The position numbers and the translations under genes are program-made. Of a stretch of DNA of 28,023 nucleotides, positions 1 through 23,294 are shown piece by piece (the first letter of the stretch is position 1; each line of letters begins with the position of its first letter). The notes beneath the pieces were generated by a model. The model made no database searches and was not told the DNA's origin. It saw nothing but the letters and a program-made list of their open reading frames with translations. Source of the DNA: a bacterium (GTDB lineage Bacteria; Omnitrophota; Gorgyraeia; Gygaellales; Profunditerraquicolaceae); the NCBI GenBank assembly GCA_037133515.1, contig JBAXNZ010000001.1, forward strand, positions 1-28,023, given 5' to 3'.

Positions 1-677
1 CCCAACCCCCCGAGCACATTCCAGTCCGGCCTTGCGGGATTGGGGGTGCCCAGAGTAAGGACCCTAACCATAAGCACGATACCGAAAATAAACAAAAGCG
101 GCATCGCCCATTTGCAGAGCAGCTCAATCCCTCCTTTTATCCCGTGATAGATAACCCAGATATTCAAGATAAAGGTGGCCAGAAAGAATAAATACGCCAC
201 TGCCATACCATTAAAATGCTGGTTATGTTCTAAGCCCTGAAAACCTCTTAAGAAGCTCTGCATAGATGCCTGGTCCGACAGCCCCTGATATTTCCCTAGC
301 ATGGCAAACAGACTATAGGCCAGGGTCCAGGATTCGATATAAATATAATAGATAAATATGACCAGCGGCCCGAATATACCGATGATCCCGAAGTATTTGA
401 TGAAACGGTTTTTCTGTAAGAGGCTGTGGAATATCCCCGGGGCAGTGCCGTGGCCAAAACCTCCTCCGAAACGGCCCAAGGTCCACTCAATCCACATAAG
501 AGGTATCCCCAGAAGCAAAAGAGAGACAAAATAGGGAATCATAAAAGCGCCTCCGCCATTGGAGGCGGCCTTGGCAGGAAAACGCAGGAAATTACCCAGG
601 CCGACGGCAGAGCCTGCTACCGCCATAATGATACCGAGCCTTGAACCCCAGTTATCCCTCTTTTTTATCTGCGGCAT
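1..677 (-). CDS. Sodium-dependent transporter, neurotransmitter:sodium symporter (NSS/SNF) family, LeuT-like; 3' end runs off the window
   Basis: Not in the ORF track. Manual translation from ATG at 677 gives MPQIKKRDNWGSRLGIIMAVAGSAVGLGNFLRFPAKAASNGGGAFMIPYFVSLLLLGIPLMWIEWTLGRFGG...YYIYIESWTL..., open to position 1. GSAVGLGNFLRFP, NGGGAFMIPY and GIPLMWIEW are NSS TM1-TM2 signatures and closely match Aquifex LeuT as I recall it. Confidence 0.95.
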   Translation of the reverse strand, partial: MPQIKKRDNWGSRLGIIMAVAGSAVGLGNFLRFPAKAASNGGGAFMIPYFVSLLLLGIPLMWIEWTLGRFGGGFGHGTAPGIFHSLLQKNRFIKYFGIIGIFGPLVIFIYYIYIESWTLAYSLFAMLGKYQGLSDQASMQSFLRGFQGLEHNQHFNGMAVAYLFFLATFILNIWVIYHGIKGGIELLCKWAMPLLFIFGIVLMVRVLTLGTPNPARPDWNVLGGL

Positions 678-1122
678 CTAACCAACCTTCTAAAAAATCT
701 AGCGTCTTAGAAACCTCTTCGCTTAAAATATCAGAAAAGACAATCGTCTTAGGTTGAATAATTAAAATAATTATATCGGCCTTTATACTGCTTTTCAAGT
801 AATTAATGGTTAAGGTGATAGAGGCATTATGCGTAGAGAAGAAGTTTACCGTACGTAGCTCATCAGCCTCAATGACCCTGTACTCACCCGGTGAGCCTCC
901 GAAATCAGCAGCATCCAAGATTAAGATATTATCGGGATTTTCTTTTATGATTTTTTCTAGATAATTCTCAGGGGTGGGGCCGGAATCAAAGACCTTAAAG
1001 GAGACTTTGTCTTTGATGCGGTTGGCTAATATAGAGCCTGCGCCGTCGTCGCTACGCAGGGTATTTCCTATACCCAAGATGATAACTTTTCCGCTTAAAT
1101 GCGCTTTAAGGTGAGAGAGCAT
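652..1122 (-). CDS. hycI: [NiFe]-hydrogenase maturation endopeptidase (HycI family)
   Basis: VIILGIGNTLRSDDGAG, GPTPENY, ILILDAADFGGSPGE and FSTHN are the HycI/HybD peptidase motifs. The window also encodes a large subunit with a cleavable C-terminal extension. Confidence 0.92.
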   Translation of the reverse strand: MLSHLKAHLSGKVIILGIGNTLRSDDGAGSILANRIKDKVSFKVFDSGPTPENYLEKIIKENPDNILILDAADFGGSPGEYRVIEADELRTVNFFSTHNASITLTINYLKSSIKADIIILIIQPKTIVFSDILSEEVSKTLDFLEGWLDAADKKEG

Positions 1123-8033: not shown

Positions 8034-8645
8034 TTATGACTTTAAAACTGCCTCTCTGCGGCAACGCGGACAAAGTACTTTGATGCGGTCTGAACGTAGG
8101 AGCTCTGACTCACGGAGTTTAAGAGAATCCTCCCTTGAGGCAAGATTCAGGGCATTCAAATAAAATAGCATGAGCGAGGCGTTCGAGAAACACAAGGCCC
8201 CAAGCCTCTTGGCCACCCATAATATCTGGTCTTTGGGCGCTATGATATCCAGGCAACAGTCGCAAAGGGCAATTTCTTTCTCGATAGATTCAAAGAGCGC
8301 TGCGTGCTCTTCGGTCGTGCTCATCTCAAAATCCTGCGAAAGCACTATCCCTTTAGAGGTCGGACAGTTCGCCTGGCACTGGCCGCAGCAGATACACTTA
8401 TCCCAATGCACAACCAGGGTCCTCTTGGCCTTGCCTGACCTCACCTCATCCTTGAATTCTATCGCGCCTGCCGGGCAAACCTGAAAACAGGCAGTGCAGC
8501 CGATACAATCCTCTTTATGAAAATGCGGGGCGCCGCGGAATCTTTCATACGGCTTATGCGGCTCGTAAGGGAACCTGCTGGTATAGGGACCTTTAAATAT
8601 TGCCCTTATCGCCTCTTTTAATTCGCGTATTTTAGGATAACGCAT
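8034..8645 (-). CDS. mbhN: 2x[4Fe-4S] subunit of the membrane hydrogenase (MbhN/HycF/NuoI-like)
   Basis: Start moved to ATG 8645 (GAGGA SD 8 nt upstream; MRYPK...KGPYTSRFP...RFRGAP). Contains CIGCTACFQVCP and CICCGQCQANCP, plus a C-terminal CDCC...CPRC pair. Confidence 0.88.
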   Translation of the reverse strand: MRYPKIRELKEAIRAIFKGPYTSRFPYEPHKPYERFRGAPHFHKEDCIGCTACFQVCPAGAIEFKDEVRSGKAKRTLVVHWDKCICCGQCQANCPTSKGIVLSQDFEMSTTEEHAALFESIEKEIALCDCCLDIIAPKDQILWVAKRLGALCFSNASLMLFYLNALNLASREDSLKLRESELLRSDRIKVLCPRCRREAVLKS

Positions 8646-8967
8646 CTTTATCATCCTCGTATTTATCGCATACTGATTTATCCCACAGTTTGACGCCAGA
8701 GCGGTGCGTGGCGCGCGCCAAGGCATGCGCAGAAACAGGAGAGGTAAGCAAAAGAAATACGATACAGATAAGCGCCTTGACGCCGGCTGCGGTAAACCCG
8801 AATTTTATCAATACGCCAAAGAGTATGCCGCAGGTGCCCAAGGTCACGCATTTGGTAGAGGCCTGCAGGCGGTTATAGATATCCGGCATGCGCACCAGCC
8901 CTATGCAGCCGAATAGGTCAAAGGTAATGCCTACTATAATAAATATAAGCGCTATGATCTCATGCAT
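8632..8967 (-). CDS. mnhG: Na+/H+ antiporter subunit G (MrpG/MnhG/MbhC)
   Basis: Start moved to ATG 8967. GCIGLVRMPDIYNRLQASTKCVTLG and LLLTSPVSAHALARA. Confidence 0.92.
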   Translation of the reverse strand: MHEIIALIFIIVGITFDLFGCIGLVRMPDIYNRLQASTKCVTLGTCGILFGVLIKFGFTAAGVKALICIVFLLLTSPVSAHALARATHRSGVKLWDKSVCDKYEDDKDALS

Positions 8968-9298
8968 CGAAACTCTTCCCCTCAATAAATTTAGCCAGGG
9001 CCAGTGCACCGATAAAACTCTGCAGGCCCCAGGCAATAGCGATATCCATATACCAATCTCGGCCGGTATAGACTGCCAGGATAGCGCAGAAACCTATAAC
9101 CAGTATGCCTAATACATCCGTAGCTATGGCCCTATCTGCAGGAGTAGGGCCCTTAAGTATCCTAAAGAGTGAAAGTAAAAATGAAATTAAAAGATAGAGC
9201 ATGAGCTTAGCCTGTAGGTCTACTTTAAGATAGGCAAATATAAAAATAATTGCCCCTGCCAGAAAGATAAAACCTAACAGCCAGCGAAAAAACCTCAT
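8960..9298 (-). CDS. mnhF: Na+/H+ antiporter subunit F (MrpF/MnhF/MbhB)
   Basis: RILKGPTPADRAIATDVLG and YMDIAIAWGLQSFIGALALAKF. Confidence 0.92.
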   Translation of the reverse strand: MRFFRWLLGFIFLAGAIIFIFAYLKVDLQAKLMLYLLISFLLSLFRILKGPTPADRAIATDVLGILVIGFCAILAVYTGRDWYMDIAIAWGLQSFIGALALAKFIEGKSFDA

Positions 9299-9789
9299 TC
9301 GAATACCTCTTTCAATATCTTTTCAAACTTCGAGACTATTATCTTAGATGCCTCCTCTATATCCTGGGTCTTGACGTCTATCCAGTGTATATATAGGCAG
9401 CCGTTCTCCTGATCGATATCTACGGACAATGTCCCGGGGGTAAGGGTGATAAAATTAGCCAGGAAGGCAAGGCCGGTCTCGGTCTTCAATATAGTCTTTA
9501 CCTTGACAATCCCCGGGTTAATAGGCAAGCGCGGATGCAGGACCCTTGAGGCAACATCTATATTTGACTTAAAACACTCCCAGGCAAAAACCAGGATATA
9601 GTATATAAACCAAACATAGCGGTGCGGGTGGAACCATTTCTTAGGGTAGCTGGTAAACATATCTCCCATCATAAGAGCGACTATTAAAGAAACAAGCGCC
9701 CCGATTAGGATATGCTGCCAATCAAGGCTAAAGCAAAGCAAGGTCCATATTAAAAGAGAGATCACAAATGTGACTACCCTGGAATACAT
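9295..9789 (-). CDS. mnhE: Na+/H+ antiporter subunit E (MrpE/MnhE/MbhA)
   Basis: SNIDVASRVLHP..PINPGIV, LANFITLTPGTLSVDI, LYIHWID. Confidence 0.94.
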   Translation of the reverse strand: MYSRVVTFVISLLIWTLLCFSLDWQHILIGALVSLIVALMMGDMFTSYPKKWFHPHRYVWFIYYILVFAWECFKSNIDVASRVLHPRLPINPGIVKVKTILKTETGLAFLANFITLTPGTLSVDIDQENGCLYIHWIDVKTQDIEEASKIIVSKFEKILKEVFE

Positions 9790-9794
9790 CTTTT

Positions 9795-11270
9795 CTAACC
9801 TCCTAAAATCAACCTGGCGTAATCCCTACCTTCAAGCAATACTGCTGCCGCAGGTTTTATTATCATATCGACAAAGGGGACAAAAAATAACCCTACCAGG
9901 ATGCAAAGTAAGGCCAAGGCCAGCATAGAAAACCTCATAAAAACAGGGGCTTCTTTAACCGTTAAAGCCGCCTGCTCTATTTTACGCATAAAGGCATACT
10001 TCTGCACTTTTAAAAATGAGGCTAAAGTCACCATAGCTACCAGTATACAGACTACTGCGCCGAAGATATTATTCGCCTGGAAGGCAGCGATGATGATCAT
10101 AAGCTTACTCCAGAAACCGCAGAAAGGCGGTATCCCGGCAATAGAAAAAGAGGCGACTAAAGAGGTAGCGCTAGTTACAGGCATAGACTGATAAAGCCCT
10201 CCCAGCTTCTCTAGCCTTCTTGTCCCTGTAGAATACTCAACAGCCCCTGAGTTTAAGAAAAGCAGGGATTTGAAAAGTGAGTGATTAAAAAGATGGAATA
10301 GCCCTGCCGTAATCCCCAGGGGTGTGCCCAGGCCTATTGCAAATACCACATATCCGATCTGGCTTATGGAATGGTAAGCCAGGAGCCTCTTAAAGTCCCA
10401 CTGTCCTATGGCAAGCAATACACCCGCAGCCATTGAGAGTATCCCCAGCCAGATAAATATCTTAGAGACTATTAGGCTAAAGCCGATAATATTAAAGATC
10501 ACCCTGATTAATGCATAAACACCCACTATCTTGATCACTACTCCGGAGAGCATCGCTGACATAGGAGCCGGAGCAGCAGGATGCGCATCCGGAAGCCAGG
10601 CATGCAAAGGCACCAGGGCAGTCTTTAAACCGAAACCCATAATAAAAAGTGCTGTCGAGTAAAGTATGAGATTCGACGATGCTGCGGCATTTAGCGAACG
10701 GCTGATATCTGCCATATTTAAAGTAGAGACGCATCCCAAGAGCATACCGATAGCCAGAAGTATCAGGGTATCGGCAACGCTACCTAAAACCAGATATTTA
10801 AAAGCAGCCTCTAACTCTTCTGCCTCTGTGCCAAAGGCAATCAAAGAATAACAGGCAATAGAGGTTATCTCAAGGAATACAAAAAGATTAAACAGGTCTC
10901 CGCTGATTACGATCCCGTTTAATCCCGCTAATAAAAGACAGAATAAAGTATAGTATAGGTAAGTAGAGGTATATCTTTTGATGTAATCTACGGAATAAAC
11001 CAGGGCTAGAAAACCTATCAGGTTCACTACTAATAACATGAGCACCGTAAGGCCATCTAGCACCATACAGATACCAAAAGGCGGCGGCCATCCTCCCACA
11101 TGATAAATCTTAAGGCCTCCCCTTAACCAATAAATGCTGCAGATGGAAAAGAACAAAAGCAGGCCTGCCCCCAGGTTTGCCACGAGCGCAGCTAACCCTT
11201 GGCGAAACTTAGCTAATATAGGTATCAAAAACGCAGCCCCTAGAGGTATAATCACAAAAACAGGTAACAT
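9795..11270 (-). CDS. mnhD: Antiporter-like membrane subunit, MrpD/MbhH type
   Basis: FVFLEITS (TM5 Glu134), GLKTALVPLHAWLPDAHPAAPAPMSAMLSGVVIK, KRLLAYHSISQIGY, GFWSK. Confidence 0.92.
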   Translation of the reverse strand: MLPVFVIIPLGAAFLIPILAKFRQGLAALVANLGAGLLLFFSICSIYWLRGGLKIYHVGGWPPPFGICMVLDGLTVLMLLVVNLIGFLALVYSVDYIKRYTSTYLYYTLFCLLLAGLNGIVISGDLFNLFVFLEITSIACYSLIAFGTEAEELEAAFKYLVLGSVADTLILLAIGMLLGCVSTLNMADISRSLNAAASSNLILYSTALFIMGFGLKTALVPLHAWLPDAHPAAPAPMSAMLSGVVIKIVGVYALIRVIFNIIGFSLIVSKIFIWLGILSMAAGVLLAIGQWDFKRLLAYHSISQIGYVVFAIGLGTPLGITAGLFHLFNHSLFKSLLFLNSGAVEYSTGTRRLEKLGGLYQSMPVTSATSLVASFSIAGIPPFCGFWSKLMIIIAAFQANNIFGAVVCILVAMVTLASFLKVQKYAFMRKIEQAALTVKEAPVFMRFSMLALALLCILVGLFFVPFVDMIIKPAAAVLLEGRDYARLILGG

Positions 11271-11274
11271 ATTC

Positions 11275-11613
11275 TTAGCCCTTCAATCTGCGTATCTCGT
11301 TAATATCAAAGGTGCGGTATTTTTCGTAGATGCGCACCGTAATCGCAACCATCAGCGCCGTAACACCCAGGCCGATAACAATAGAGGTAAGAATGAGCGC
11401 CTGCGGCAGGGGATCGACAAAATTAGTAATAGGGGTATCCTTACTTAATATCGGAGCCTCCCCTCCTTTAGTGTAACCTAAAAGAATAAAAAAGAGGTTT
11501 ACGGCATATTCAGTAATGCCTAGCCCTACTATTTTCTTAATCAGGTTCTTTTTAACTATAAGGCAATACAGGCCTATGGCAAATAGAATCAGGCAAAGGA
11601 TATAAAGACTCAT
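11275..11613 (-). CDS. mnhC: Na+/H+ antiporter subunit C (MrpC/MnhC/MbhG)
   Basis: KKNLIKKIVGL, APIL, VDPLPQALILTSIVIG. Confidence 0.94.
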   Translation of the reverse strand: MSLYILCLILFAIGLYCLIVKKNLIKKIVGLGITEYAVNLFFILLGYTKGGEAPILSKDTPITNFVDPLPQALILTSIVIGLGVTALMVAITVRIYEKYRTFDINEIRRLKG

Positions 11614-12074
11614 CTGTTTTCTCCTTTTTTCTCTTCTGGAGGCAGCCTTATAAAAGCCAGGGCAAGAAATATAGCAAATAACCCTGCTCCCACTTTTAAG
11701 AATATAGCGATATTACAGAAAATAATTATCCCGGAGCTGAATAAGTCAAAGGGCCTGCCCTTGGGTAGAATATTCAAAAAGAAGTAGCTGCCGAATATAA
11801 GGCCTAGCAGCGCCAAACCCCAGAACATAAGCCCGCCCAAAGATTCAATGATTGAGACGGTTGCCTGGCTCATCTTCTTTAAGGCAACCTCCTTGCCGAA
11901 GGCAAGCACCAGGTGAATAAAAGAAAGCGCGATGATCACCCCTCCGGCAAAGCCTCCTCCGGGAGTAAGGTGGCCGTGCAGGACGATATAGACGCCAAAT
12001 AAGAAAATAAGGCTTACTGTAATCTTGGTAATGCGCTTAACTATCAAAGACATCCCGCTATTATCTTCTTTCAC
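11610..12074 (-). CDS. mnhB: Na+/H+ antiporter subunit B (MrpB/MnhB/MbhF)
   Basis: YIVLHGHLTPGGGFAGGVI. Confidence 0.93.
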   Translation of the reverse strand: MKEDNSGMSLIVKRITKITVSLIFLFGVYIVLHGHLTPGGGFAGGVIIALSFIHLVLAFGKEVALKKMSQATVSIIESLGGLMFWGLALLGLIFGSYFFLNILPKGRPFDLFSSGIIIFCNIAIFLKVGAGLFAIFLALAFIRLPPEEKKGENR

Positions 12075-12589
12075 GTTTTTCTTCCTTTTATCCTTAATAC
12101 CGCCAACACGCCTATTACCGAAGTAAATAATATGGTGGCCTCGCCTAACGTATCATAACCCCTGAAATCCAGGATAACGGCAGCCACGATATTGGCCGCT
12201 CCGGTTTTGGCTAATGCCTCTTTTATATACAGAGAGCCCATCTTCATTATAGGAAAACCAAAAACAGGAAGCTGGGCCAGGGCCTTGTAACTGAAAAATA
12301 AAAAAAGGGCAGCAAATACGAGCGCAAAGACAAAATAACCTATCCTGGTGGCTATCCTCTCCCTGGGCAGGCTTACGCCCACAGTAGCCCTGATCAGTAT
12401 AATCAAAGATAATATCTCAACTACCAGCTGCGTAATCGCAAGGTCCGGCGCGCGAAGCAGGAGGAACTCCAAGGTAAGCCCTATGCCCACGGCACCCAGG
12501 GCAATGACGCTAGAAAGCATATCCTCAAGCTCCATAGCTACCACTGCCCCGATAATCATCAATATTAATATTACATGTAACTCTATCAT
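12071..12589 (-). CDS. Fused MbhD (DUF4040)-MbhE subunit, equivalent to the C-terminal part of MrpA
   Basis: Start moved to ATG 12589, 1 nt after the upstream stop. LRAPDLAITQLVVE (DUF4040) and GAANIVAAVILDFRGYDTLGEATILF (MbhE). Confidence 0.88.
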   Translation of the reverse strand: MIELHVILILMIIGAVVAMELEDMLSSVIALGAVGIGLTLEFLLLRAPDLAITQLVVEILSLIILIRATVGVSLPRERIATRIGYFVFALVFAALFLFFSYKALAQLPVFGFPIMKMGSLYIKEALAKTGAANIVAAVILDFRGYDTLGEATILFTSVIGVLAVLRIKGRKT

Positions 12590-12590
12590 C

Positions 12591-14495
12591 TCATCTAACC
12601 ATAAGAATAATAAACATAACCAGAAGCCCAAGCAAGCTCCAGACCAGATATAAATCCAGGACCCCGGAGTGCAGTTTACGCAATAGCCAGCTTAAACCCA
12701 GAACCAGATAGCCGGTGAGGCTAGTCAACAGGTTTATAAAACGGTCAACCAGAATAAATAAAAGGTAAGCCAGAAACCTAAGAGAGCCGTTCAAAAGGTT
12801 ATATAAGTCCAAGGCCTCAAACTGCATAAGCGAATATAGCTTTTTTATAGGGGGGAGTTCCTCTATGGTGCGATAAAAATGCGTGGCAGGAAAGTCCGGG
12901 CCAAATACCGGCTCCTCTCCTCCGATAAAAAAGTTATCCGTTCTTAATTTTTTAGATTTCAAGCCCTGCCAGAAGATAAGGCCCAATAAAAGGCCTACCC
13001 CCAGGAGCCCGGCTGCAAGCTGGCTATTCCATGCGCCGATAAAAATAATCTCAAGGCCCAGCCAGGGCTGAATAAAATATTTTAAGAACAACCCCGGCAT
13101 AATCCCTAATAAAAGGCATAGGCCCGCGAGCACCAGAACAGAAAACCTCATCCCCGAAGATACCTCCCCTGTATTTTTCTTATCTTGGGAACTCTCCTGG
13201 CCTAAGAATACCGCATGGATAAACTTGATAAAACTGGCCAGGGTCAGGGCACTTCCGAACATCGCAGCTATTAAGGCAAAGATATAAATGAAACGCATAA
13301 CCGCGCCCTCTGAATTAAAAAGCCCAAGCAACACGCCCTGATAAAGCATCCACTTGGAGGCAAATCCGTTAAAAGGAGGGACACCTGAGATGGATAAGGC
13401 AAAACAGACCCCACAGGCAAAGGTTATAGGCATATAAGCAGCCAGGCCGCCTAATTTGTCCAGGTCAAAGGTCTTTCTCTTTTCTCCGACGGAGCCGGCG
13501 GTCAGGAATAATCCGCTTTTGTAGATAGCGTTATTGATCATATGAAAGATCCCGGCAGCTATCCCTAGGCTGGTGCCTGTGCCGAATCCTAAGACCATAT
13601 AACCTACCTGGCTTACCGCGTGAAAAGAGAGCAGCTTCCTGGCATCATGCTGTATAAGAGCCAACATCACCGCAAAGATTATAGTTAAACTGCCTAAGAC
13701 TAATAAAATTACCGCAATTACTTTATTAAAAACAAAAAAGTCTACTGAGATCCTGGCTAAAAGATATATGCCCAGCAATTTATCTAAAGAAGCGGGTAAT
13801 ATCGCCATTGCCGGTATTGGCGCCTCCTCTGCTGCCTGGGGTATCCAGGTGTGAAACGGCGCGCATCCGGCCTTAGCCAGGGCGCCTATAAGCATAAGGA
13901 TAAAGGCGAGCCAACCCAGCGGCTGATTCAAAAGCAACTTTGCCGTCTGATTATCAGGCATAATAGTGCTTCCTGTAACAAAGACATAAAAGCATACCCC
14001 TAAGATTAAGGAAAAATCAGCCATACCTACGATAGAGAGTGCCTTTTTGGCGCTTGAGCCTGAGCCTAAACTTAAAAAGGCATAAAGAAGTACCAGGGTC
14101 GCTCCCCAGGAGAAGATAAAAAGGATGAAATCTGCCGATAAGCAGACCAGATTAGAGAAGGCAATCAGAGAAAGCAGATAAAGAAAATAGGGCCTTCTGT
14201 TTTTCACTTCTGTATAATCTGCGGAATAAAGACAGACCAATAATCCGAAGAGATTGCTAAAAACCAGTATAAGCCCGGAGAGCTTATTTAAACCTAACAA
14301 CAGACTATAGTCTCCTATCAGGTTTAGGCTAAGGCCTTGCGCTGGTTTTATAAATAAAAGGACTGAACTCGCCAGAGATATACTTAAGATTAATAGCGCG
14401 AGCCCCTTCCTTAGGCCTTCTGATTTAAAAACCATAAGCAAAAAGCCTGAGCATATCGGCAATATGGTTAAGAAAAATAAATAGCGCGTCATCAT
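12591..14495 (-). CDS. Long antiporter-like membrane subunit (NuoL/HyfB/MbxH'-like) with C-terminal extension
   Basis: AKAGCAPFHTWIPQAAEEAP, ASLDKLLGIY, RKLLSFHAVSQVGY, PPFNGFASKW. A hydrophilic, probably amphipathic stretch precedes a final TM. The TM5 Glu position is Gly131. Confidence 0.88.
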   Translation of the reverse strand: MMTRYLFFLTILPICSGFLLMVFKSEGLRKGLALLILSISLASSVLLFIKPAQGLSLNLIGDYSLLLGLNKLSGLILVFSNLFGLLVCLYSADYTEVKNRRPYFLYLLSLIAFSNLVCLSADFILFIFSWGATLVLLYAFLSLGSGSSAKKALSIVGMADFSLILGVCFYVFVTGSTIMPDNQTAKLLLNQPLGWLAFILMLIGALAKAGCAPFHTWIPQAAEEAPIPAMAILPASLDKLLGIYLLARISVDFFVFNKVIAVILLVLGSLTIIFAVMLALIQHDARKLLSFHAVSQVGYMVLGFGTGTSLGIAAGIFHMINNAIYKSGLFLTAGSVGEKRKTFDLDKLGGLAAYMPITFACGVCFALSISGVPPFNGFASKWMLYQGVLLGLFNSEGAVMRFIYIFALIAAMFGSALTLASFIKFIHAVFLGQESSQDKKNTGEVSSGMRFSVLVLAGLCLLLGIMPGLFLKYFIQPWLGLEIIFIGAWNSQLAAGLLGVGLLLGLIFWQGLKSKKLRTDNFFIGGEEPVFGPDFPATHFYRTIEELPPIKKLYSLMQFEALDLYNLLNGSLRFLAYLLFILVDRFINLLTSLTGYLVLGLSWLLRKLHSGVLDLYLVWSLLGLLVMFIILMVR

Positions 14496-15886
14496 TTTAT
14501 AAGACTACTTACTAAATTAAGCGGCAATTTAACTACCAACCCTAAAAATAAAGAAAGTACGCATAGAATGAGAACTACCGCTACCATAAAAGACCCTCCG
14601 TCCTCCTGGGCCTGGATCTTGACCTCTCCCAGAAAGACGCATTCAAATAATCTCATCAGATAAAATAAGGTAAACAAGGCACCTATGACCATAGCTGTGC
14701 CGGCCAAGAGATACCCTGCCTTGAAAGAAAGCAGCACTACCATAAGCTTGGGCCAGAAACCTAAAAAAGGCGGGATCCCGATGATAGAAAAAGCGCAGAG
14801 AAGATAAGCCGTGGCAGTATAAGGCATGCTCTTTAACAGGCCGCCTAATTCATTTATGTTTTTGCTGCCGGTTTTATGCTCTATGATGCCTGCGCACAAA
14901 AACAGTCCTGCCTTAGCCAGGCTGTGCGCCAGGATATAAACAAGCGCTATCTTAAAAGAAATGCTGGTATTCAGTGCCAGGGCAAGCAGTATATAACCCA
15001 GCTGGCTGATAGTAGAATAAGCCAGGATCCTCTTCATATTCTTTTCAACCAGGGCAGAGCCGGCAGCTACAATTATAGTGATGACGCTGATCAGAATAGC
15101 GCTATTAAGGAATAAGGGGCTTGAAACAAAGGTCAGGCTAAAAAGCCTGGCAAAGGCATAGATACCGATCTTGACTAAAACCGCGGCATGCAAAAGCGCG
15201 GTTACCGGCGTAGGCGCGACCCCCGCATCAGGAAGCCAACTCTGCAGGGGAAGCTGCGCGGATTTTGAGATTATCCCGGCTAAAAACAAAAACGCTACCA
15301 GGTTCGCCAGAGATACCCCCTTTAAAACGCTAAGCTCTAGGGTGCCGTAATTAAGATAGACTAAAACTATAGCGGCTAAGAAAAGCGAGGCGCCGAAGAA
15401 AGTAACCAGAAAGGCCTTATCCGCGGCCTTGAGGTCTTTCTCCCCGCGGTAAAAACCGATCAGCCTCCAGGAGCATACTGATGTAATCTCCCAGAAACAG
15501 AAAAGAAGCAGGAGGTTAGCTGAAAAAACCAGGCCGGTCATGCTGCCTAAGAATAAGACCATCCAGAAATAAAACGAGCCGTTTTCTTCATAATCACGCA
15601 TATATTCCAGGGAATAAAGCGCGATCAAGAATCCTACCAAAAGCGAGACCGAGGCCATAAATACCGCCAGGCCGTCTGCCATAAAAGATAAACTTAGCCA
15701 ACTGTTAAGGTAGCGGTAGAATATAATCTCTTTTCCTTTTAAGAATACTGCGGCGAGTAAAAGACTGAACAAAAATGCGCTACCTAAAATCAGAACCGAG
15801 GCAGGGGCTTTATATCTCTTAGGCAGGCCATAAACTAAGAGGCTGCCTAAGATCGGAAAGAATATTACCGTCAATAACAGTTTCAT
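14492..15886 (-). CDS. Antiporter-like membrane subunit, NuoL/MrpA-type core without lateral helix
   Basis: FWEITS (Glu133), SKSAQLPLQSWLPDAGVAPTPVTALLHAA, KRILAYSTISQLGY, GFWPK. Confidence 0.9.
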   Translation of the reverse strand: MKLLLTVIFFPILGSLLVYGLPKRYKAPASVLILGSAFLFSLLLAAVFLKGKEIIFYRYLNSWLSLSFMADGLAVFMASVSLLVGFLIALYSLEYMRDYEENGSFYFWMVLFLGSMTGLVFSANLLLLFCFWEITSVCSWRLIGFYRGEKDLKAADKAFLVTFFGASLFLAAIVLVYLNYGTLELSVLKGVSLANLVAFLFLAGIISKSAQLPLQSWLPDAGVAPTPVTALLHAAVLVKIGIYAFARLFSLTFVSSPLFLNSAILISVITIIVAAGSALVEKNMKRILAYSTISQLGYILLALALNTSISFKIALVYILAHSLAKAGLFLCAGIIEHKTGSKNINELGGLLKSMPYTATAYLLCAFSIIGIPPFLGFWPKLMVVLLSFKAGYLLAGTAMVIGALFTLFYLMRLFECVFLGEVKIQAQEDGGSFMVAVVLILCVLSLFLGLVVKLPLNLVSSLIK

Positions 15887-16503
15887 TATTTTATCTTTAA
15901 GAGGCCCCTGGCTATCTTTTTAGCATGATAATAAACCGCGGCAGTAAAATCGAGCATATTCAAGAACATATTGCAGGCCATTGGGCTACAGATGCCGTCG
16001 AGCAGCCTCTGATTATGCCTGCGGCGGTACTCATCCACCATCTTATCAATATGACCTTCCCCTTTAAGCACCTCTTTAACCAGGCCGGGCTTATCTTTAT
16101 CCAGGGCCTCAGTTATTTCTTTAAGGGAAGACTCGGTTTTGCGATAGAGCTCTTCATACTCCTTTACCGCATCGTCGCTAAAAAGCAGTTTTTCTTCTAT
16201 CTTTATCTGGATACGCTCCAGCATATCCTTGCAATAATCGCCGATAAGCTCAAGGTCTGCCACCACATCGGCATAGATCAATACCTTGGTCTTATCAGTT
16301 TTAACTTTTGTAGCGCGGCCAAACTCTACGAGTTCGATAGTCAGCTCCTTCTCTAAATCATTGAGCTTAACCTCCTTCTCCAATACCCCTGGAATTATCT
16401 GGAGGTCATGTTCCATAAATGCAGCGTGCGTATCCTGCCACATCTTAAGGCTTAACTTGGACATTGCCGCGATTCGTGATTTTATATTTCTAAGCTCCGC
16501 CAT
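15886..16503 (-). CDS. Stand-alone PhoU-fold protein resembling the cytoplasmic C-terminal domain of Na+/Pi cotransporter (NptA/YjbB-type) proteins
   Basis: Soluble, helical, with two repeats. EKEVKLNDLEKEL, ADLELIGDYC (cf. DLERIGD), LLFSDDAVKE, IDKMVDEYRRRHNQRLLDGICS (cf. HxxRLxxGxC), FLNMLD...YHAKKIA. Confidence 0.75.
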   Translation of the reverse strand: MAELRNIKSRIAAMSKLSLKMWQDTHAAFMEHDLQIIPGVLEKEVKLNDLEKELTIELVEFGRATKVKTDKTKVLIYADVVADLELIGDYCKDMLERIQIKIEEKLLFSDDAVKEYEELYRKTESSLKEITEALDKDKPGLVKEVLKGEGHIDKMVDEYRRRHNQRLLDGICSPMACNMFLNMLDFTAAVYYHAKKIARGLLKIK

Positions 16504-17695
16504 CTTTAAACCTCTCTCTCAACTTATTGGTCTTCTCCTGGGATAATTTAATCAGGTCCCAGCCGTTCATTATCTTTTTATTATCCGGCTTGTTGATCAC
16601 CGCTACCCTCTCGGTGCAGCAGTAGCAAGGGTCAACCGCAGCCAGGGTAATGGTAGCATCAGAGATAGTCCCTCCTACTGCCCCGACTTTATTAGAAGCC
16701 ACATTCATAAAGCTGGGCGCGCGTATCTTATGCCTTATCGGCCGGTTTGTCCCGTCGCTTTTTATATAATGGATGCATTCTCCCCTTGGCGCCTCGACCC
16801 TTCCTATCCCCTCACCAACAGGGATATCTTTAATATCGGCATCAATAGCTCCGCGGGGAAGCTTATCCAGGCACTGACGGATAATGCGTATGGACTCATA
16901 CATCTCAAGGATCCTCACCACGGTCTTGGCAAAGATATCGCCGTCTTTTTCCATAATTATATTCCAATCCAGGTTGCTATAAGCGCCGTAAGGATCATCC
17001 CGCCGCACGTCTATATTTATGCCGGAGGCCCTGGCAGTCGGGCCGACCACGCAGTAGTCAATTGCCTGCTCTTTAGTTAAAACGCCCACGCCCACCAGCC
17101 TTGCCTTTATTACCGGGTCATCCATAACCGCGCCCTTAAACATATCCACTGCCGGAACTAGCTCATCCAGCGTCTTTTTTAAGACCGATATATCTGCGTC
17201 TTTTATATCGCGTCTGATCCCTCCTATCTTTAACATCCCGTAGTTATTCCTATTGCCGGTGATCATCTCAAAACAATCTAGCACAGGCTCGCGGTATTTC
17301 CAGGCCCACATCCAAACCGTATTGTAACCGATAAAATGCCCTGCCAGGCCCAGCCATAACAAGTGGCTGTGTATGCGCTGCAGCTCATCTACTATGGTGC
17401 GTATATATACGGCGCGCTCCGGCACCAGCTTCTCCTCACCCCCTAATATATCCTCTACTGCCAGCACATAGGCATAGGGGTGGCTGGAAGAACAGATCCC
17501 GCAGATGCGCTCCACAAGAAAAGCGACTTGGTCAAAGTGCTTTGACTCTGAGAGCTTTTCAATCCCGCGGTGGTTGTAACCGATGATGATATCGATATCC
17601 ACCACGCGCTCTCCCTCAACATAAAGCTGAAAGAACTCCGGTTCTTCTTGTAAAGGGTGATACGGACCTATAGGTACGATTACTCTATGGCTCAT
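16490..17695 (-). CDS. mbhL: Group 4 [NiFe]-hydrogenase large subunit (MbhL/HycE/EchE-like)
   Basis: GPYHPLQEEP, GYNHRGIEK, L1 ERICGICSSSH, EAPRGE, IRAPSF, L2 DPCYCCTER, followed by a 38-aa C-terminal extension. Confidence 0.93.
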   Translation of the reverse strand: MSHRVIVPIGPYHPLQEEPEFFQLYVEGERVVDIDIIIGYNHRGIEKLSESKHFDQVAFLVERICGICSSSHPYAYVLAVEDILGGEEKLVPERAVYIRTIVDELQRIHSHLLWLGLAGHFIGYNTVWMWAWKYREPVLDCFEMITGNRNNYGMLKIGGIRRDIKDADISVLKKTLDELVPAVDMFKGAVMDDPVIKARLVGVGVLTKEQAIDYCVVGPTARASGINIDVRRDDPYGAYSNLDWNIIMEKDGDIFAKTVVRILEMYESIRIIRQCLDKLPRGAIDADIKDIPVGEGIGRVEAPRGECIHYIKSDGTNRPIRHKIRAPSFMNVASNKVGAVGGTISDATITLAAVDPCYCCTERVAVINKPDNKKIMNGWDLIKLSQEKTNKLRERFKDGGA

Positions 17696-18120
17696 TTGCC
17701 TTGCCTTAGAGGATAGTCGCCTTGCGGCCAGTCCTCTGCTAAAAGCAACCTTTTTAGATTAGGATGGTTCTTAAAATTTATACCCAGCATCTCCCAGATC
17801 TCCCGCTCAACCCACTCTGCGCCGGCGAATATAGGCGCCAGTGAATCCACCTCTGGATGTAATTTGTCAGAAAGCATAACGCGCAGGGAATAAACCGCCC
17901 CGCTTGCGTCATCGCTAAAGTGATAGATTATTTCAAAGGCTAAAGGCGTATCTATGCCTGAAGCAGTAGAAAACCTAAGCCCTAATTCTTTGAATAAAAA
18001 CCTGGAGACTTCGAATATATCTTCCTTTTTAACCGTAATATATATGCGCCTGGGGGAGTGTTCTTCCCAGGAGACGATCCTTACCCCTAAACCTTCTTTT
18101 ATTTTCTCTATCATATCCAT
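17692..18120 (-). CDS. mbhK: NuoC-like subunit (MbhK/EchD)
   Basis: FEIIYHFS, AEWVEREIWEMLGINFKNHPNLKRLLLAEDWPQGDYPLR. Confidence 0.9.
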   Translation of the reverse strand: MDMIEKIKEGLGVRIVSWEEHSPRRIYITVKKEDIFEVSRFLFKELGLRFSTASGIDTPLAFEIIYHFSDDASGAVYSLRVMLSDKLHPEVDSLAPIFAGAEWVEREIWEMLGINFKNHPNLKRLLLAEDWPQGDYPLRQGK

Positions 18121-18123
18121 GGT

Positions 18124-18549
18124 TTATTTTTTATTTTTGATCTTATCCGTAAGTTTGGCAATCCCGGCAATTATCGCCTCCGGCTTAGGAGGGCATCCCG
18201 GTATATAAACATCCACCGGTATTATGCTGTCCAAGGGGCCTGCTACATTATAGCTATCCCGGAACATATTCTGCGACACCGCACAGATCCCGCAGGCAAC
18301 CACCAGGCAGGGTTTAGCTGCCTGTTCATAGATTTTTTTAAGGAGCGGGACTGCCTTGCGGCTCATGGCGCCGGTGACCAATAGCGCATCCGCATGCCGC
18401 ACAGACCCGATTAATTGTATACCGAACCTCTCTATGTCAAACCTGGGGGTGAAGCAATCCAATATTTCTATATCACAGTTATTGCAGGAACCAGCGCTCA
18501 CATGAAAAACCCAGATAGACTTGGTAAGCGCCTTAAGCCTTAAATCCAT
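18124..18549 (-). CDS. mbhJ: Group 4 hydrogenase small subunit (MbhJ/HycG/NuoB-like), 1x[4Fe-4S]
   Basis: GSCNNCDIE (hydrogenase-type CxxC, not the tandem CC of NuoB), RFDIERFG, ACGIC, VDVYIPGCPPKPE. Confidence 0.93.
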   Translation of the reverse strand: MDLRLKALTKSIWVFHVSAGSCNNCDIEILDCFTPRFDIERFGIQLIGSVRHADALLVTGAMSRKAVPLLKKIYEQAAKPCLVVACGICAVSQNMFRDSYNVAGPLDSIIPVDVYIPGCPPKPEAIIAGIAKLTDKIKNKK

Positions 18550-18550
18550 T

Positions 18551-19462
18551 CTATAATCCTCCTGCTGCCAAGGCCACGCTAAGTATTGCCAATAATGTAG
18601 CTGGCCCCCAGAAAAATTTAAGCGCCTGGTCGATGCGCAGCCGCGGATTGGTATTCTTGATCAATATGATCAATACCAGTATCGCTATAAACTTTAAAAT
18701 AATAAAGAGGGGGCTGGTATCCTTTCCCAGAAAAAGGAAAATCACCAGCAACGGCATTGTATAAAGTAAGCTTGCCTTTGTCAATTTAAATACTGCCAAA
18801 GGCAAGCCTGAATATTCTATCATTGTCCCGGCCATGATCTCCTGCTCTGCCTCTGCGATATCAAAGGGGTTCATCCCTAATTTTGCCTGCATGCAGAATA
18901 ATACTACTATAAAGGCAAGGAAACCGGACCAAGAGAATATATTCGATCCTGCACTCGCCTGGCTGCTCAGTATTTGAGCCAGCTGTATTGAGCCTTTTGC
19001 CCTAATTGCCACCGCGATTATTGCCAGGATAAAGGGGAGCTCATAAGAAAGCACCAGCTTGATCTCGCGGCTTGCGCCCACCGAAGCCAGGGGGTTCCTG
19101 GAAGAAGAAGCGCCCAATATTACGGCGATAGCCGGAATGACCAACAGGTATAAGAGCACGATAAGGTCGGCGCGGAAAAGCTCCGAATGAAAAAAAAGAT
19201 TCTTTCCCAGTATTGTAGCTATCAGGACCGCGCTTAATAGCCCCAGGTAAGGAGATAACAAAAAGGCACCTCCGGAGCCCTTGGGGACTATGACTTCCTT
19301 GCCCAGTAATTTTACGATATCTACGAAGTTCTGATACCAGGGCGGGCCTACCCGCCACTGGATGCGGGCAGTGACCTTGCGGTCTATCCAGCCTGCCAGG
19401 AGCCCGGCCGAGACGGTAAACAAAAAACCAGGGAATACGAGATAATCAAATAATGGCATCAT
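18551..19462 (-). CDS. mbhM: NuoH-like membrane anchor (MbhM/HycD/EchB)
   Basis: Start moved to ATG 19462 (ATGA overlap with the upstream stop). WIDRKVTARIQWRVGPP, GASREIKLVLSYE, PFDIAEAEQEIMAGTMIEYSG, PRLRIDQ. Confidence 0.92.
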   Translation of the reverse strand: MMPLFDYLVFPGFLFTVSAGLLAGWIDRKVTARIQWRVGPPWYQNFVDIVKLLGKEVIVPKGSGGAFLLSPYLGLLSAVLIATILGKNLFFHSELFRADLIVLLYLLVIPAIAVILGASSSRNPLASVGASREIKLVLSYELPFILAIIAVAIRAKGSIQLAQILSSQASAGSNIFSWSGFLAFIVVLFCMQAKLGMNPFDIAEAEQEIMAGTMIEYSGLPLAVFKLTKASLLYTMPLLVIFLFLGKDTSPLFIILKFIAILVLIILIKNTNPRLRIDQALKFFWGPATLLAILSVALAAGGL

Positions 19463-19950
19463 CTTTTCTTTGGTTGAAAATCCTCCCTTACCCATTTACT
19501 GGAATGCACTGCCAGATGCTCTCCCACAAAATAAATATTATTCTCTGTGCTCTCCTCTATCTCCCGTAAATCCACTGCCTTATGCGTGCAGCTGGTTATA
19601 CATTTAGGAAGCTGGCCTGTTTTACCTATGCAATAATCGCATTTTGAGTCAAGATAGGGAATAAAATCAGCAAAGATAACCCCAAAAGGGCAGGCAAGGG
19701 TACAAGATTTACAACTGGTGCAACGCATCTTATAGCGTTTTAGGTGGCCATCAGAGCCACGTTCAAGGGCATTATGGTAACAGGAATTAACGCAAGGAGC
19801 CTCTTCGCAATGCCGGCAGATAATGGCAAAGGTTGAGTATTCGCGTAAACCCGCTACCCCGTTATTCTGCGGATGATAGAAATACTCACAGCAACTTATA
19901 CACTCTTTACAGCTGCTGCAGATATCCAGGTCAACAAACAGGCGTTTCAT
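19459..19950 (-). CDS. Polyferredoxin, 4x[4Fe-4S] HycB/CooF/HydN-like electron-transfer subunit
   Basis: CSSCKECISCC, CRHCEEAPCVNSC, CTSCKSCTLACPFG, KCDYC...CITSC: the DmsB/HycB-family Cys pattern. Confidence 0.88.
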   Translation of the reverse strand: MKRLFVDLDICSSCKECISCCEYFYHPQNNGVAGLREYSTFAIICRHCEEAPCVNSCYHNALERGSDGHLKRYKMRCTSCKSCTLACPFGVIFADFIPYLDSKCDYCIGKTGQLPKCITSCTHKAVDLREIEESTENNIYFVGEHLAVHSSKWVREDFQPKKR

Positions 19951-19954
19951 ATTT

Positions 19955-20770
19955 CTAGTCCCATATATCGGGTATATCTTTTAATTCCCTGTAAGTAAAG
20001 ACCGGGCCGTCTTTGCAGGCATAAAACTTTCCGATGCGGCAGTGCCCGCATTTACCCAGGCCGCATGACATGTTTTTTTCCATTGAGAGGTATATCTCCT
20101 GTGGCTTAAATCCCAGGTCCATTAATTTTAATACTCCGAATTTCATCATTATCGGCGGGCCGCAGACTATTGCCACTGCCTTCTTTAAATTAAGGGGCAG
20201 GTCTTTTAGTATTGTAGTAACTAGCCCCACATTCCCTTTCCAACTAGGGTCTCCTACATCAACTGTGGTGACGATATCCACCTTTTTTTTCTTAGACCAT
20301 TGCGGTATGGCAGACTTATAAATGATATCCGCTGAGCTACGCGCGCCATAGCGTAATAATACCTTATTGTATTTATCTATATCGGAAAAAAGGCTAAACA
20401 ATAACGAGCGTAGCGGCGCCAGGCCCACCCCTCCGCCTAATATCAAGATATCCTTACCCTCAAAACTCTCCAGTGGGTAACCCTTACCATAAGGCCCGCG
20501 TATGCCAACGGTTGTTCCTTTAGAAGCCTGATGCAATAAAGAGGTGACCCTACCCGCCTTCATTATAGTTACCTCCATGACCTCGCTAACATTCGGGTCA
20601 GAGGAAGGGGTAAAGGGCGCCTCCCCTATGCCAGGTATGGAGAGCTCGATGAACTGCCCGGTTTTAAAAGAGAACTGCTCCTTTGGCCTGATTACGAAGG
20701 TCTTTATATTAGAGGTCTCACTGATGACATCTTCGATAGTCGCCTCTATAGGCAGATAGATATTTTTCAT
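19955..20770 (-). CDS. FAD/NAD(P)-binding [2Fe-2S] oxidoreductase, AsrB/HydG(gamma)/FlxA-like
   Basis: FNR fold: GQFIEL, GEAPFTPSS, GPYGKGYP, GGGVGLAPLRS, YGAR, CGPPIMM, MEKNMSCGLGKCGHC...CKDGPVF. Confidence 0.92.
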   Translation of the reverse strand: MKNIYLPIEATIEDVISETSNIKTFVIRPKEQFSFKTGQFIELSIPGIGEAPFTPSSDPNVSEVMEVTIMKAGRVTSLLHQASKGTTVGIRGPYGKGYPLESFEGKDILILGGGVGLAPLRSLLFSLFSDIDKYNKVLLRYGARSSADIIYKSAIPQWSKKKKVDIVTTVDVGDPSWKGNVGLVTTILKDLPLNLKKAVAIVCGPPIMMKFGVLKLMDLGFKPQEIYLSMEKNMSCGLGKCGHCRIGKFYACKDGPVFTYRELKDIPDIWD

Positions 20771-21828
20771 AATTTAGCGTGCAATTTCTTATCCAGGTCT
20801 TTTAGGACTTCTCTTATATCAATTTTTCCCGGGCAGACCTCGATACACCTGCCGCAGCCGCAACAGGCAGGCAGGCCCAGATTATCAATAAAAAAGTCAA
20901 ACTTCTTCATAAATCTGTTTCTTAACCTCTGGGTCCTGGTCTTTAAAGGATTTGCGCCTCCTGCAACCCTGGCATAATTAGCATACAGGCAGGAATCCCA
21001 GAGCCTTACTTTTTCATTTTGATTACCCTTTCTTCTGTCTGAGAGCAGAAAACAATGACAGGTATCGCAAACAAGATTGCACCCTCCGCATTCAACGCAG
21101 GTAAGCATGAATTCGCTCCAGGTAGAGAGGCCATACCCCTGCTTAACCAGGCCCTGGAGGCTATCTTTTACCGGGATGTTTTGAGGCAGGAGGTGCTTTT
21201 GAAGCCGCTCGATCAGGTTATCCCTTTTTATGGAGCGGCCGGCAATCTGCGTATCTTTGGCAGGGATAAAATACTGCTGGTAGGCCTTAAGCAGGTCTTG
21301 GCCCTTTGCTGAACCTACCTCTACCAGATAACCTTCATTTAGAGGAGAAAGGTTTAAGTCAAAACCCTCGCTCGGATAAGGAAGGATATCCAGGGCCAGG
21401 CAGAAACATACTTTTTTAAAGGCCGTACAATCAGAAGAAATAATAACGGTATTCTCTCTTCTAAGGCGGTATAAAGAATCTACCTCCTGGCCTTCCATGA
21501 ATACGAAATCCTGTATCTTGTGGCCGGCGAGGTCGCAGCTTTTTACCCCCACAATAACGGCCTTTTTAACCTGGGTTATTTTTTTGTCCTCTGTGAAATA
21601 CCCGCCTACCAAATCTTGCGGCCAGGTAAAAAAAGACTTTAGCGGTTCGACTACGCGGTAAGGATTAAAGGTAAGAACTTGCGGGTATATGAATTTTTGA
21701 TAGGAGTATTCAGTTTCTTTGGGGGGAGTATTCTCTTTGGCCTGGGGGACAAATACGCTGAGGTCTTTCTGGAGTTGATTTAGAAAATCTTCTAACCTAG
21801 CAGTTTCGATATAATATATTCTGTGCAT
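20767..21828 (-). CDS. 4Fe-4S protein, AsrA/HydB(beta)/FlxB-like
   Basis: GVKSCDL, CFC, CVECGGCNLVCDTCHCF, RLWDSC, RLRNRFMKKF, CCGCGRCIEVCP. The start is uncertain (ATG 21828 or TTG 21867). Confidence 0.9.
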   Translation of the reverse strand: MHRIYYIETARLEDFLNQLQKDLSVFVPQAKENTPPKETEYSYQKFIYPQVLTFNPYRVVEPLKSFFTWPQDLVGGYFTEDKKITQVKKAVIVGVKSCDLAGHKIQDFVFMEGQEVDSLYRLRRENTVIISSDCTAFKKVCFCLALDILPYPSEGFDLNLSPLNEGYLVEVGSAKGQDLLKAYQQYFIPAKDTQIAGRSIKRDNLIERLQKHLLPQNIPVKDSLQGLVKQGYGLSTWSEFMLTCVECGGCNLVCDTCHCFLLSDRRKGNQNEKVRLWDSCLYANYARVAGGANPLKTRTQRLRNRFMKKFDFFIDNLGLPACCGCGRCIEVCPGKIDIREVLKDLDKKLHAKL

Positions 21829-21896
21829 ATTGAGGAAAACGTTCGGGCGGGAATATTTAGAGCCCAAAACGACAGATTATTATTTTTAGAGTAGAT

Positions 21897-22395: not shown

Positions 22396-23294
22396 CTATA
22401 ATAAAACGTATTTCTTAAAAATAACTAAGCGCCTTTCTAAATCCTCTAAGGTAAGGCGGCTGGTCCTCTTTAAACCGAAATCCTCGATGTTAAAAGATGC
22501 GGCTATCGTGCCATAACTGATCGCCTTTTTAAGGCTCTTCTCATTTATCTTTTTGGTTTTTGCCAGATAACCCATAAACCCTCCGGCAAAGGTATCCCCT
22601 GCGCCGGTAGGGTCCACTACCATGCTCATAGGATAGCAGGAATGACAAAGATAAACCTGCCGCTGTAAAACAAGACCCCGTGCTCGCCTTTCTTTATTAG
22701 CACCATCTGGGGCCCGAGCTTATGCAGATAGCGGGCTGCCCTGACCAGATTATTCTCTCCCGACAAATCCCTGGCCTCCTGGTCATTAGCCACATAGATA
22801 TTGACTTTCTTTAATAGGCGCAGCAGGGACTTACGCTTATGCTTTATCCAAAAATTCATGCTGTCTAAACCCACAAGCCCAGGGGATTGCATGCGGCCTA
22901 AAAAATAGCTTTGTACCTCGGGGTCGATATTAGCCAGGAAGATATTTTTTATCTTTCTTTGTTCTTTTGATAATCTGGGCTTGAAATCAGAGAGCACGCC
23001 CAGCCTAGTATCATTGGTAATAGCGCAGTTAAGGTCTCCCTGATATTCTCCGTCCCATCTGAAACTCTCTCCTTCTTCTCTGGCAAGTGAGGCCAGGTCC
23101 AGGCCTTTTCTGCGCAAAAAATCTACGTGCCTGATAGGGAAATCCTTGCCTATAACCGCCACCAGATGCACCTGGGTAAAAAGCCTGGCGGACATAGCAA
23201 AATGCGCGGCTGAGCCTCCCAGCATATTTTCCCTCTTGCCGAAAGGGGTCTTAACCGTATCCAGCGCTACTGTGCCCAAAACAATTATGCTCAT
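22396..23294 (-). pseudogene. PfkB/ribokinase-family sugar or nucleoside kinase split by a 1-nt frameshift (real lesion or sequencing error)
   Basis: The 5' part (ATG 23294 to 22626) has GTVALD, LGGSAAHF, LANIDP and KKGEHG and ends PAIL*. The 3' part (22629-22396) has VVDPTGAGDTFAGG. One extra T near 22635 restores ...PAYPMSMVVDPTGAGDTFAGG. Confidence 0.8.

Follow-up and report, generated by a model that had tools for sequence, protein, structure and literature searches.

The PhoU-like gene and its operon

The stretch of DNA analysed here, referred to as the window, comprises 28,023 nucleotides of contig JBAXNZ010000001.1 (assembly GCA_037133515.1) from a bacterium of the Omnitrophota (Profunditerraquicolaceae) and carries an operon for a membrane-bound, ion-pumping [NiFe] hydrogenase. 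Between the genes of the catalytic large subunit and the membrane arm of this enzyme lies an open reading frame (ORF) for a soluble, PhoU-like protein of 205 amino acids. Comparison with related operons identifies this gene as an undescribed, optional accessory factor of the hydrogenase, which is dispensable and mobile and is not a fixed subunit. Its ATG at position 16503 is located 14 nucleotides within the preceding large-subunit gene, with the purine-rich GAGAGAGAGG 8 nucleotides 5' of it, and its TAA shares base 15886 with the ATG of the following antiporter-like gene, giving TAATG. The gene is co-translated with the hydrogenase structural subunits. The product is hydrophilic, with an isoelectric point of 6.3. 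A preliminary description of this DNA had reported both junctions and several motifs of the protein; the junctions are exact from the coordinates, and all the motifs are found in the translation, namely DLELIGDYC (residues 83-91), FSDDA (108-112), HNQRLLDGIC (163-172), and AAVYYH (188-193).

The operon begins with HydB-like, HydG-like, and polyferredoxin genes, followed by those for NuoH, NuoB, NuoC, the large subunit, and the PhoU-like protein, then by the membrane arm and a NuoI-like gene (Table 1). Judged by gene content, gene order, and the CGIC-CYCC signature, it is assigned to the Hun or group 4g Mbh-Mrp-oxidoreductase [NiFe] hydrogenases. This design has been named the 16-subunit Hun complex, with HunG as a group 4g protein bearing CGIC-CYCC (Glass et al., bioRxiv 10.1101/536078). 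The Omnitrophota enzyme has been called group 4g and Mrp-linked (Williams et al. 2021, PMC8542988), and the type has also been termed Mbh-Mrp-oxidoreductase (Meheust et al., bioRxiv 10.1101/765248). PhoU is mentioned in none of these three accounts of the enzyme. Full-text literature searches likewise found no described link of PhoU to hydrogenases of this type or to Mrp, and one of the hits was a false match to 'pHout'.

Table 1. Coordinates of the hydrogenase-related features of the window
Feature	Position	Strand	Basis
PhoU-fold protein, 205 amino acids	15886..16503	-	PF01895, AlphaFold2, Foldseek, dN/dS
[NiFe] large subunit (HunG / MbhL / NuoD-like)	16490..17695	-	RICGIC + DPCYCCTER = CGIC-CYCC signature
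First antiporter-like subunit, NuoL/MrpA-type core, 464 amino acids	14492..15886	-	domain matches
AsrA/HydB-like Fe-S protein (HunA/HunB-like input module)	20767-21867	-	domain matches
AsrB/HydG-like FAD/NAD(P) protein (HunA/HunB-like input module)	19955-20770	-	domain matches
Polyferredoxin	19459-19950	-	Pfam
NuoH-like	18551-19495	-	Pfam
NuoB-like small subunit	18124-18549	-	Pfam
NuoC-like	17692-18120	-	Pfam
Rest of membrane arm: 634-amino-acid antiporter-like, MbhD/E, MnhB, MrpC, MrpD (491 amino acids), MrpE, MrpF, MrpG	8632..14495	-	domain matches
NuoI/HycF-like 2x[4Fe-4S] subunit (HunP-like), last structural gene	8034..8726	-	domain matches
HycI-type hydrogenase maturation endopeptidase, ~7 kilobases downstream of operon	652..1122	-	domain matches

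Elsewhere in the window (22396-23306, minus strand), a pfkB-family kinase gene is present as two overlapping ORFs of 226 and 77 amino acids, and its counterpart in the related locus L001 is one gene of 299 amino acids. Either a frameshift or an assembly error accounts for the split, or the gene is a pseudogene.

Fold and evolutionary origin

The 205-amino-acid product is confirmed to be a stand-alone PhoU-fold protein with the full PhoU fold. The Pfam family PhoU (PF01895) matches two stretches of it, corresponding to two repeats, with 59.4 bits against a cut-off of 23.5. The AlphaFold2 model, built with 64 homologues, is all-helical (mean predicted local distance difference test score, pLDDT, 95.6; predicted template modelling score 0.92), and its top Foldseek match is PhoU of Pseudomonas aeruginosa (4q25; template modelling, TM, score 0.89-0.90; root-mean-square deviation about 2 Å over 205 columns). 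The next matches are the PhoU proteins of Aquifex, Thermotoga, and Streptococcus, and Foldseek returned nothing significant beyond PhoU-type proteins. In a profile search of Protein Data Bank sequences, the first repeat was the main matching part. The scores for PhoU proper lie below their thresholds, with 39.5 bits against 130.25 for the PhoU equivalog TIGR02135 and 23.7 against 342 for PRK11115. A Na_Pi_cotrans membrane domain, as found in sodium/phosphate (Na/Pi) cotransporters, is absent from the protein according to Pfam and from the 74%-complete assembly of the host genome; moreover, the scanned window ORFs of at least 100 amino acids include neither a pst or pho gene nor a Na_Pi_cotrans domain. 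A soluble helical protein of the PhoU fold, with no transporter domain and no pst or pho gene in the window, is what the preliminary description had claimed, and the Pfam score, the confident model, the Foldseek match to 4q25, and the ORF scan all agree with it.

Phylogenetic trees, all inferred with FastTree, show where this protein came from. Among 137 PhoU-like sequences, all hydrogenase-linked copies fall into one clade with 98% local support, joined by a small number of stand-alone proteins that are not linked to a hydrogenase. Outside this clade, the nearest relatives are the C-terminal PhoU modules of Na/Pi cotransporters, which upholds the likeness to the cytoplasmic domain of these transporters noted at the outset. 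The hydrogenase-linked protein thus derives from the cytoplasmic PhoU pair that Na/Pi cotransporters normally carry in fused form, and it has become free-standing.

The stand-alone non-hydrogenase relatives adjoin genes for a DUF6962 membrane protein, a PQ-loop protein, or, in one case, atpZ/atpI. The nearest of them in Omnitrophota are at L129:6190-7530, with the DUF6962 neighbour, and L130:6736-7674, with the PQ-loop neighbour. Another stand-alone PhoU-like protein (L135:110-1562), 26% identical to that of the window, is encoded directly upstream of an atpZ-like gene (ATPase_gene1) and atpI. The idea that stand-alone PhoU-like genes are a general theme of bioenergetic operons was rejected, as a 36%-identical relative (L147) has another context.

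The conserved residues fit this position in the tree. The first metal-type site, E44/N48/E85/D89, is intact and 96-100% conserved. M14, E44, E85, G88, D89, F108, S109, H163, R166, C172, P174, and H193 are shared with the Na/Pi-cotransporter modules, and R97, K101, E104, N178, M179, and D185-F-T are fixed only in the hydrogenase-linked copies. The second ExxxD, in helix alpha-6, is replaced by AAVYYH, so that both acidic residues and the arginines are gone. The motifs had been described as partly eroded; the second is indeed lost, but the loss is common to the whole clade and is no erosion specific to this gene.

The ratio of nonsynonymous to synonymous substitution rates (dN/dS) between the PhoU-like gene and its orthologues is 0.09-0.14, compared with 0.03-0.09 for the large subunit, which points to purifying selection on the gene. 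Its mean pairwise distance is 0.87, roughly threefold the value for the large subunit (0.27); the long antiporter-like subunit (0.83) and the HydB-like protein (0.78) have comparable distances. The gene might alternatively be the remnant of a broken Na/Pi cotransporter gene, and the automatic annotation of many orthologues does read 'Na/Pi cotransporter family protein'. This explanation, raised earlier as one that would undo the accessory-subunit claim, is refuted and retains practically no probability: more than 90 orthologues share the length of about 205 amino acids, have intact frames, and evolve with dN/dS of about 0.1; the gene upstream encodes the large subunit and not a transporter; and no Na_Pi_cotrans domain was found in the genome.

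Association with hun operons

A word-based search found 398 relatives, of which the best 120 are all about 205 amino acids long and 60-92% identical, mostly from metagenome-assembled genomes (MAGs) of Omnitrophota. A pattern scan, which took one genome per species and a narrow alignment and in whose cross-phylum sampling the divergent subfamilies were left out, yielded 75 loci. In all 70 loci with 38-92% identity, the PhoU-like gene is part of a hun operon; 69 have it immediately behind the large subunit and one (L082, labelled Nitrospirota) between the NuoH- and NuoB-like genes. Hun operons also surround the representatives at 29-37% identity with usable flanks, in which the gene follows that of the large subunit or separates MrpG from the NuoI-like gene. 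The loci added by the phylum sample comprise 14 with the gene between MrpG and the NuoI-like gene, one with it after the NuoI-like gene, and four deep ones with it behind that of the large subunit. The P0139/P0281 subfamily has it after the NuoI-like gene, with HycI and HypA next in order. Five arrangements are thus known: large subunit/PhoU-like/antiporter, MrpG/PhoU-like/NuoI-like, NuoI-like/PhoU-like at the operon end, NuoI-like/PhoU-like/HycI/HypA, and NuoH/PhoU-like/NuoB. In all five, the gene of a peripheral-arm or junction subunit adjoins the PhoU-like gene. The gene co-occurs with three membrane-arm designs: with the 464-amino-acid subunit, without it, and without the MrpB-G set.

The PhoU-like family is dedicated to the Hun hydrogenase, its association with hun operons being near-exclusive. 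In the window and more than 90 related loci, the neighbours of the PhoU-like genes are hydrogenase genes and not pstSCAB or pstB. A survey of homologue neighbourhoods, which had been expected to tell whether the gene always stands next to that of the large subunit, gives a divided answer: the homologues stay in hun operons down to about 30% identity, and not mostly in pst or Na/Pi contexts, but they occupy five positions.

The HycI-adjacent subfamily has no close relatives among 401 sampled Omnitrophota genomes. Clusters of the ESM Atlas, read as proteins only, hint at similar 205-amino-acid proteins in MAGs labelled Thermodesulfobacteriota and Nitrospirota. In the operon of L082, about 3.8 kilobases of sequence (L082:2730-6554) separate the HydG-like from the polyferredoxin gene; in some MAGs, a molybdopterin-domain protein is found at the spot between these two genes (Glass et al., bioRxiv 10.1101/536078). 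Furthermore, the hun operons of L025, L035, L040, L054-L056, and L059 have no detectable MbhD/E, MnhB, or MrpC-G, and consist in their 3' part of one long antiporter-like gene (two in L025) and then NuoI-like and major facilitator superfamily (MFS) transporter genes, so that their membrane arm is far shorter.

An optional and mobile gene

An even sample of 401 Omnitrophota genomes allows the frequency of the gene to be estimated. A HunG orthologue (identity of at least 60%) is present in 105 of them, four of these 105 being partial owing to contig ends; the hydrogenase-linked PhoU-like gene is found in 41 of the 105 and was not found in the other 64. Every genome bearing the gene has HunG, and the operon position was confirmed, from coordinates or fetched loci, for 39 of the 41 copies. 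Two genomes, G071 and G213, have a non-hun stand-alone relative only. In all 20 PhoU-less operons inspected, the antiporter gene follows about 15-130 nucleotides after the large subunit, which in some cases is 83-86% identical to that of the window, and no PhoU-like sequence occurs in the 13-19.5 kilobases around each. As six in ten related operons do without the gene, it is an optional factor and not a fixed subunit.

The gene has also been gained or lost repeatedly. On a large-subunit tree of 99 operons, its presence and absence require 15 changes, at least 10 of which are forced by well-supported branches. The locus L063 (G012:C28) illustrates how the gene moves. Its large subunit belongs to a deep lineage and is 85% identical to that of L091, in which the PhoU-like gene follows MrpG; the PhoU-like copy of L063 follows the large subunit and is 53-58% identical to those of the main lineage and 32% identical to those of its close relatives. 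L063 therefore acquired the PhoU-like gene alone, by lateral transfer.

These data bear directly on two other explanations. The first takes the protein for an integral subunit or a scaffold where the peripheral and membrane arms meet, as the preliminary description had proposed when it placed the gene as locked between the two. Complex I-like enzymes often have accessory subunits that are restricted to certain lineages, and the position between catalytic and antiporter genes, with coupling on both sides, agrees with such a role. However, an obligate subunit is ruled out by the 41 of 105 genomes, the 20 operons with abutting flanks, and the minimum of 10-15 gains or losses; the gene is combined with three membrane-arm designs, does not co-vary with the membrane-arm genes, and leaves no compensating change in length or rate where it is missing. 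Hun has also been described with 16 subunits, the PhoU-like one not among them. The scaffold is accordingly largely refuted and highly improbable. The placement is no more locked than the five positions and the exchange between operons allow; of the claim for a new accessory subunit, what holds is that the protein is hydrogenase-dedicated and undescribed, and what falls is its presence wherever the hydrogenase is.

The second explanation regards the protein as a PhoU paralogue and general regulator of phosphate homeostasis that acts on Pst, Pho, or Na/Pi transport and is only a passenger in the operon. It can draw on the PhoU domain itself, on a PstB-like gene on a tiny contig of the host assembly, and on the fact that no other PhoU-domain gene was found in the same incomplete assembly. 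Against it stand the equivalog score of 39.5 against 130 bits, the missing alpha-6 signalling motif, and the hydrogenase in each genome with a hydrogenase-linked copy, 39 of 41 copies being in or beside the operon. Moreover, the operon link survives five arrangements and one lateral transfer, and no pst gene is nearby. A general phosphate regulator is thus very unlikely.

Co-inheritance with the parts of the enzyme

Pairwise distances in 23 complete operons separate the genes into two blocks, namely the peripheral-arm genes, including the far-3' NuoI-like gene, and the Mrp-type genes. There is almost no correlation between the two blocks (r = 0.26), and the three membrane-arm designs are scattered over the large-subunit tree; these observations suggest that peripheral and Mrp-type modules have been swapped between hun operons. 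Among loci L017-L084, L019 compared with L017 would be an example of such a swap.

The distances of the PhoU-like protein correlate with those of the peripheral block (r = 0.87) and hardly with those of the Mrp block (r = 0.16). With two deep operons removed, the correlations become 0.57 for HydG and 0.51 for the large subunit, and at most 0.15 for the membrane genes. This is moderate evidence of co-inheritance with the peripheral arm, and a scaffold at the arm junction loses further ground, as the protein tracks the peripheral and not the membrane-arm genes. The co-variation of distances distinguishes only the peripheral from the membrane module, at deep levels, and singles out no partner subunit. 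For all 17 subunits, lengths are alike in operons that have the PhoU-like gene and in those that lack it. No faster subunit evolution follows loss of the gene either, the ratios to large-subunit distance being equal in loss and control pairs.

Relation to hydrogenase maturation

The main rival to a regulatory role is that of a maturation or assembly factor which is not part of the finished enzyme, for instance a chaperone for the unprocessed large subunit or a protein for metal delivery. PhoU proteins are reported to bind Mn/Mg, and one crystal structure is reported with multinuclear Fe (work cited in PMC12301784); one metal-type site is conserved in the hydrogenase-linked copies. In most operons, the gene directly follows that of the large subunit, and in the P0139/P0281 subfamily it is itself immediately followed by HycI and HypA. 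Accessory maturation proteins are often dispensable, as is the PhoU-like gene. Additionally, the maturation protein HypB (TIGR00073) was found in none of 10 relatives that are 92-96% complete, five with and five without the gene (G157, G197, G277, G240, G266, G362, G324, G207, G312, and G332). HypA is present in 50 of the 64 genomes without the PhoU-like gene (78%). Among the genomes that have the gene, HypA occurs in 15 of 21 from the deep lineages and in only 6 of 20 from the main lineage (30%).

Other observations speak against such a role. HypB was found neither with nor without the gene. Within the main clade, HypA occurs in 5 of 11 genomes without the gene (45%) against 6 of 20 with it (30%), or 11 of 31 overall; the contrast shrinks within the clade, and the apparent anticorrelation is therefore explained by phylogeny. 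Replacement of HypB or HypA by the PhoU-like protein was rejected on these grounds. Nickel insertion may be different in these organisms. In deep lineages, HycI comes immediately after the last hun gene regardless of the presence of the PhoU-like gene. The large-subunit tail after DPCYCCTER, with 32-55 residues including NGWDLIKLSQEKT, is highly conserved in all 101 large subunits, again irrespective of the gene, and a link between the gene and this tail was discarded. Furthermore, the gene lies mostly between structural genes and is translationally coupled on both sides, and its product has no Cys/His-rich nickel-chaperone motif. Overall, a maturation or assembly factor is considered rather unlikely.

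The conservation of the tail, encoded at the 3' end of the large-subunit gene (window 16490-16610), is odd in itself if HycI, as presumed, removes this peptide.

Possible function and significance

The PhoU-like protein is an optional accessory protein dedicated to Hun and, on our tentative reading, most likely a detachable cytoplasmic regulatory adaptor. A Na/Pi-type PhoU pair was freed from its transporter and then recruited into a hun operon. The proposed adaptor would dock on the cytoplasmic side of the Hun complex, more probably at the peripheral or junction subunits than at the antiporter arm. A small ligand, which may be a divalent metal at E44/N48/E85/D89, phosphate, or another anion, would be the signal for it to adjust activity or ion coupling. 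The preliminary description had put forward a putative sensor of phosphate, Na+, or metal. That the protein binds the complex, where it would do so, which ligand it would sense, and what it would regulate are all inferred. A detachable adaptor is favoured because the ancestral module is normally tethered to an ion-coupled transporter, because the gene is dispensable, and because no compensating changes accompany its absence. In the same way, presence in 41 of 105 genomes, 10-15 changes on the tree, lateral acquisition, and the lack of subunit changes are more readily reconciled with a loosely bound regulator than with a structural component.

Several points weigh against the adaptor. In canonical PhoU, the alpha-6 motif RxxERxxD[R/H] has been proposed for phosphate sensing and phosphate signalling (PMC12301784); this motif is absent here, and a phosphate-sensing role is therefore not transferable from PhoU. 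The conserved basic residues R97, K101, R160, H163, and R166 would be clustered at one end of the bundle, as judged by geometry only. The signal of co-inheritance stems largely from deep splits and is lost in the shallow clade. HycI and HypA directly following the gene in one subfamily would suit a maturation role as well. Finally, as six in ten operons do without the gene, any regulation that it provides is non-essential.

A bolder version of the adaptor, in which the borrowed Na/Pi PhoU sensor has become a ligand-gated regulatory subunit of an ion-pumping hydrogenase, must be regarded as unlikely. If true, phosphate, divalent-metal, or energy status would directly throttle H2 production and the generation of the Na+/H+ gradient, and the consumers of the Na+ gradient (Na/Pi symporters) and its generator (the hydrogenase) would bear the same control module. 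To our knowledge, the post-translational regulation of group 4 hydrogenases is largely unknown.

The gene is of interest beyond this proposal. It is a natural add-on, the effect of which is measurable by comparing near-identical operons with and without it, and it shows that the PhoU module of Na/Pi cotransporters can go free-standing and be reused with other membrane machines. Practical limits are set by hosts that are Omnitrophota not yet in culture, by a Hun enzyme that has yet to be purified, and by the dispensability of the factor.

Comparison with known systems

The window operon shares the gene content, gene order, and CGIC-CYCC signature of the Hun complex as described and differs from it by an extra, optional seventeenth gene, the PhoU-like one, which is found mainly in Omnitrophota. 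As a small soluble protein added to a conserved core in certain lineages, the product resembles accessory subunits and assembly factors that complex I-like enzymes have acquired in particular lineages, whereas we know of no such enzyme (MBH, MBS, Ech, FHL, or complex I) with a PhoU-fold partner.

PhoU proper (TIGR02135; 4q25, 1t72, 1sum, and 2i0m) has the six-helix, two-repeat fold in common with the hydrogenase-linked protein (TM score 0.83-0.90), which also keeps the first E(D)xxxD site. Known PhoU is a soluble adaptor acting on membrane proteins, and the same role is proposed for the hydrogenase-linked protein. In contrast, the latter is only 14-20% identical to PhoU and scores far under the family cut-off, its second repeat is without RxxERxxD[R/H], and it has no pst context.

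The closest parallel is the PhoU pair of Na/Pi cotransporters, in which PF02690 is followed by two copies of PF01895 (for example L148, with 563 amino acids). The hydrogenase-linked protein differs from it in being free-standing, with no transporter domain, in a hydrogenase operon, and with its own fixed residues. However, the two are nearest relatives in the tree, share the class-wide residues, and have both lost the second ExxxD. Moreover, each would be the cytoplasmic module of an ion-coupled membrane machine, the transporter in the one case and, if the Hun copy does attach to its complex, the hydrogenase in the other.

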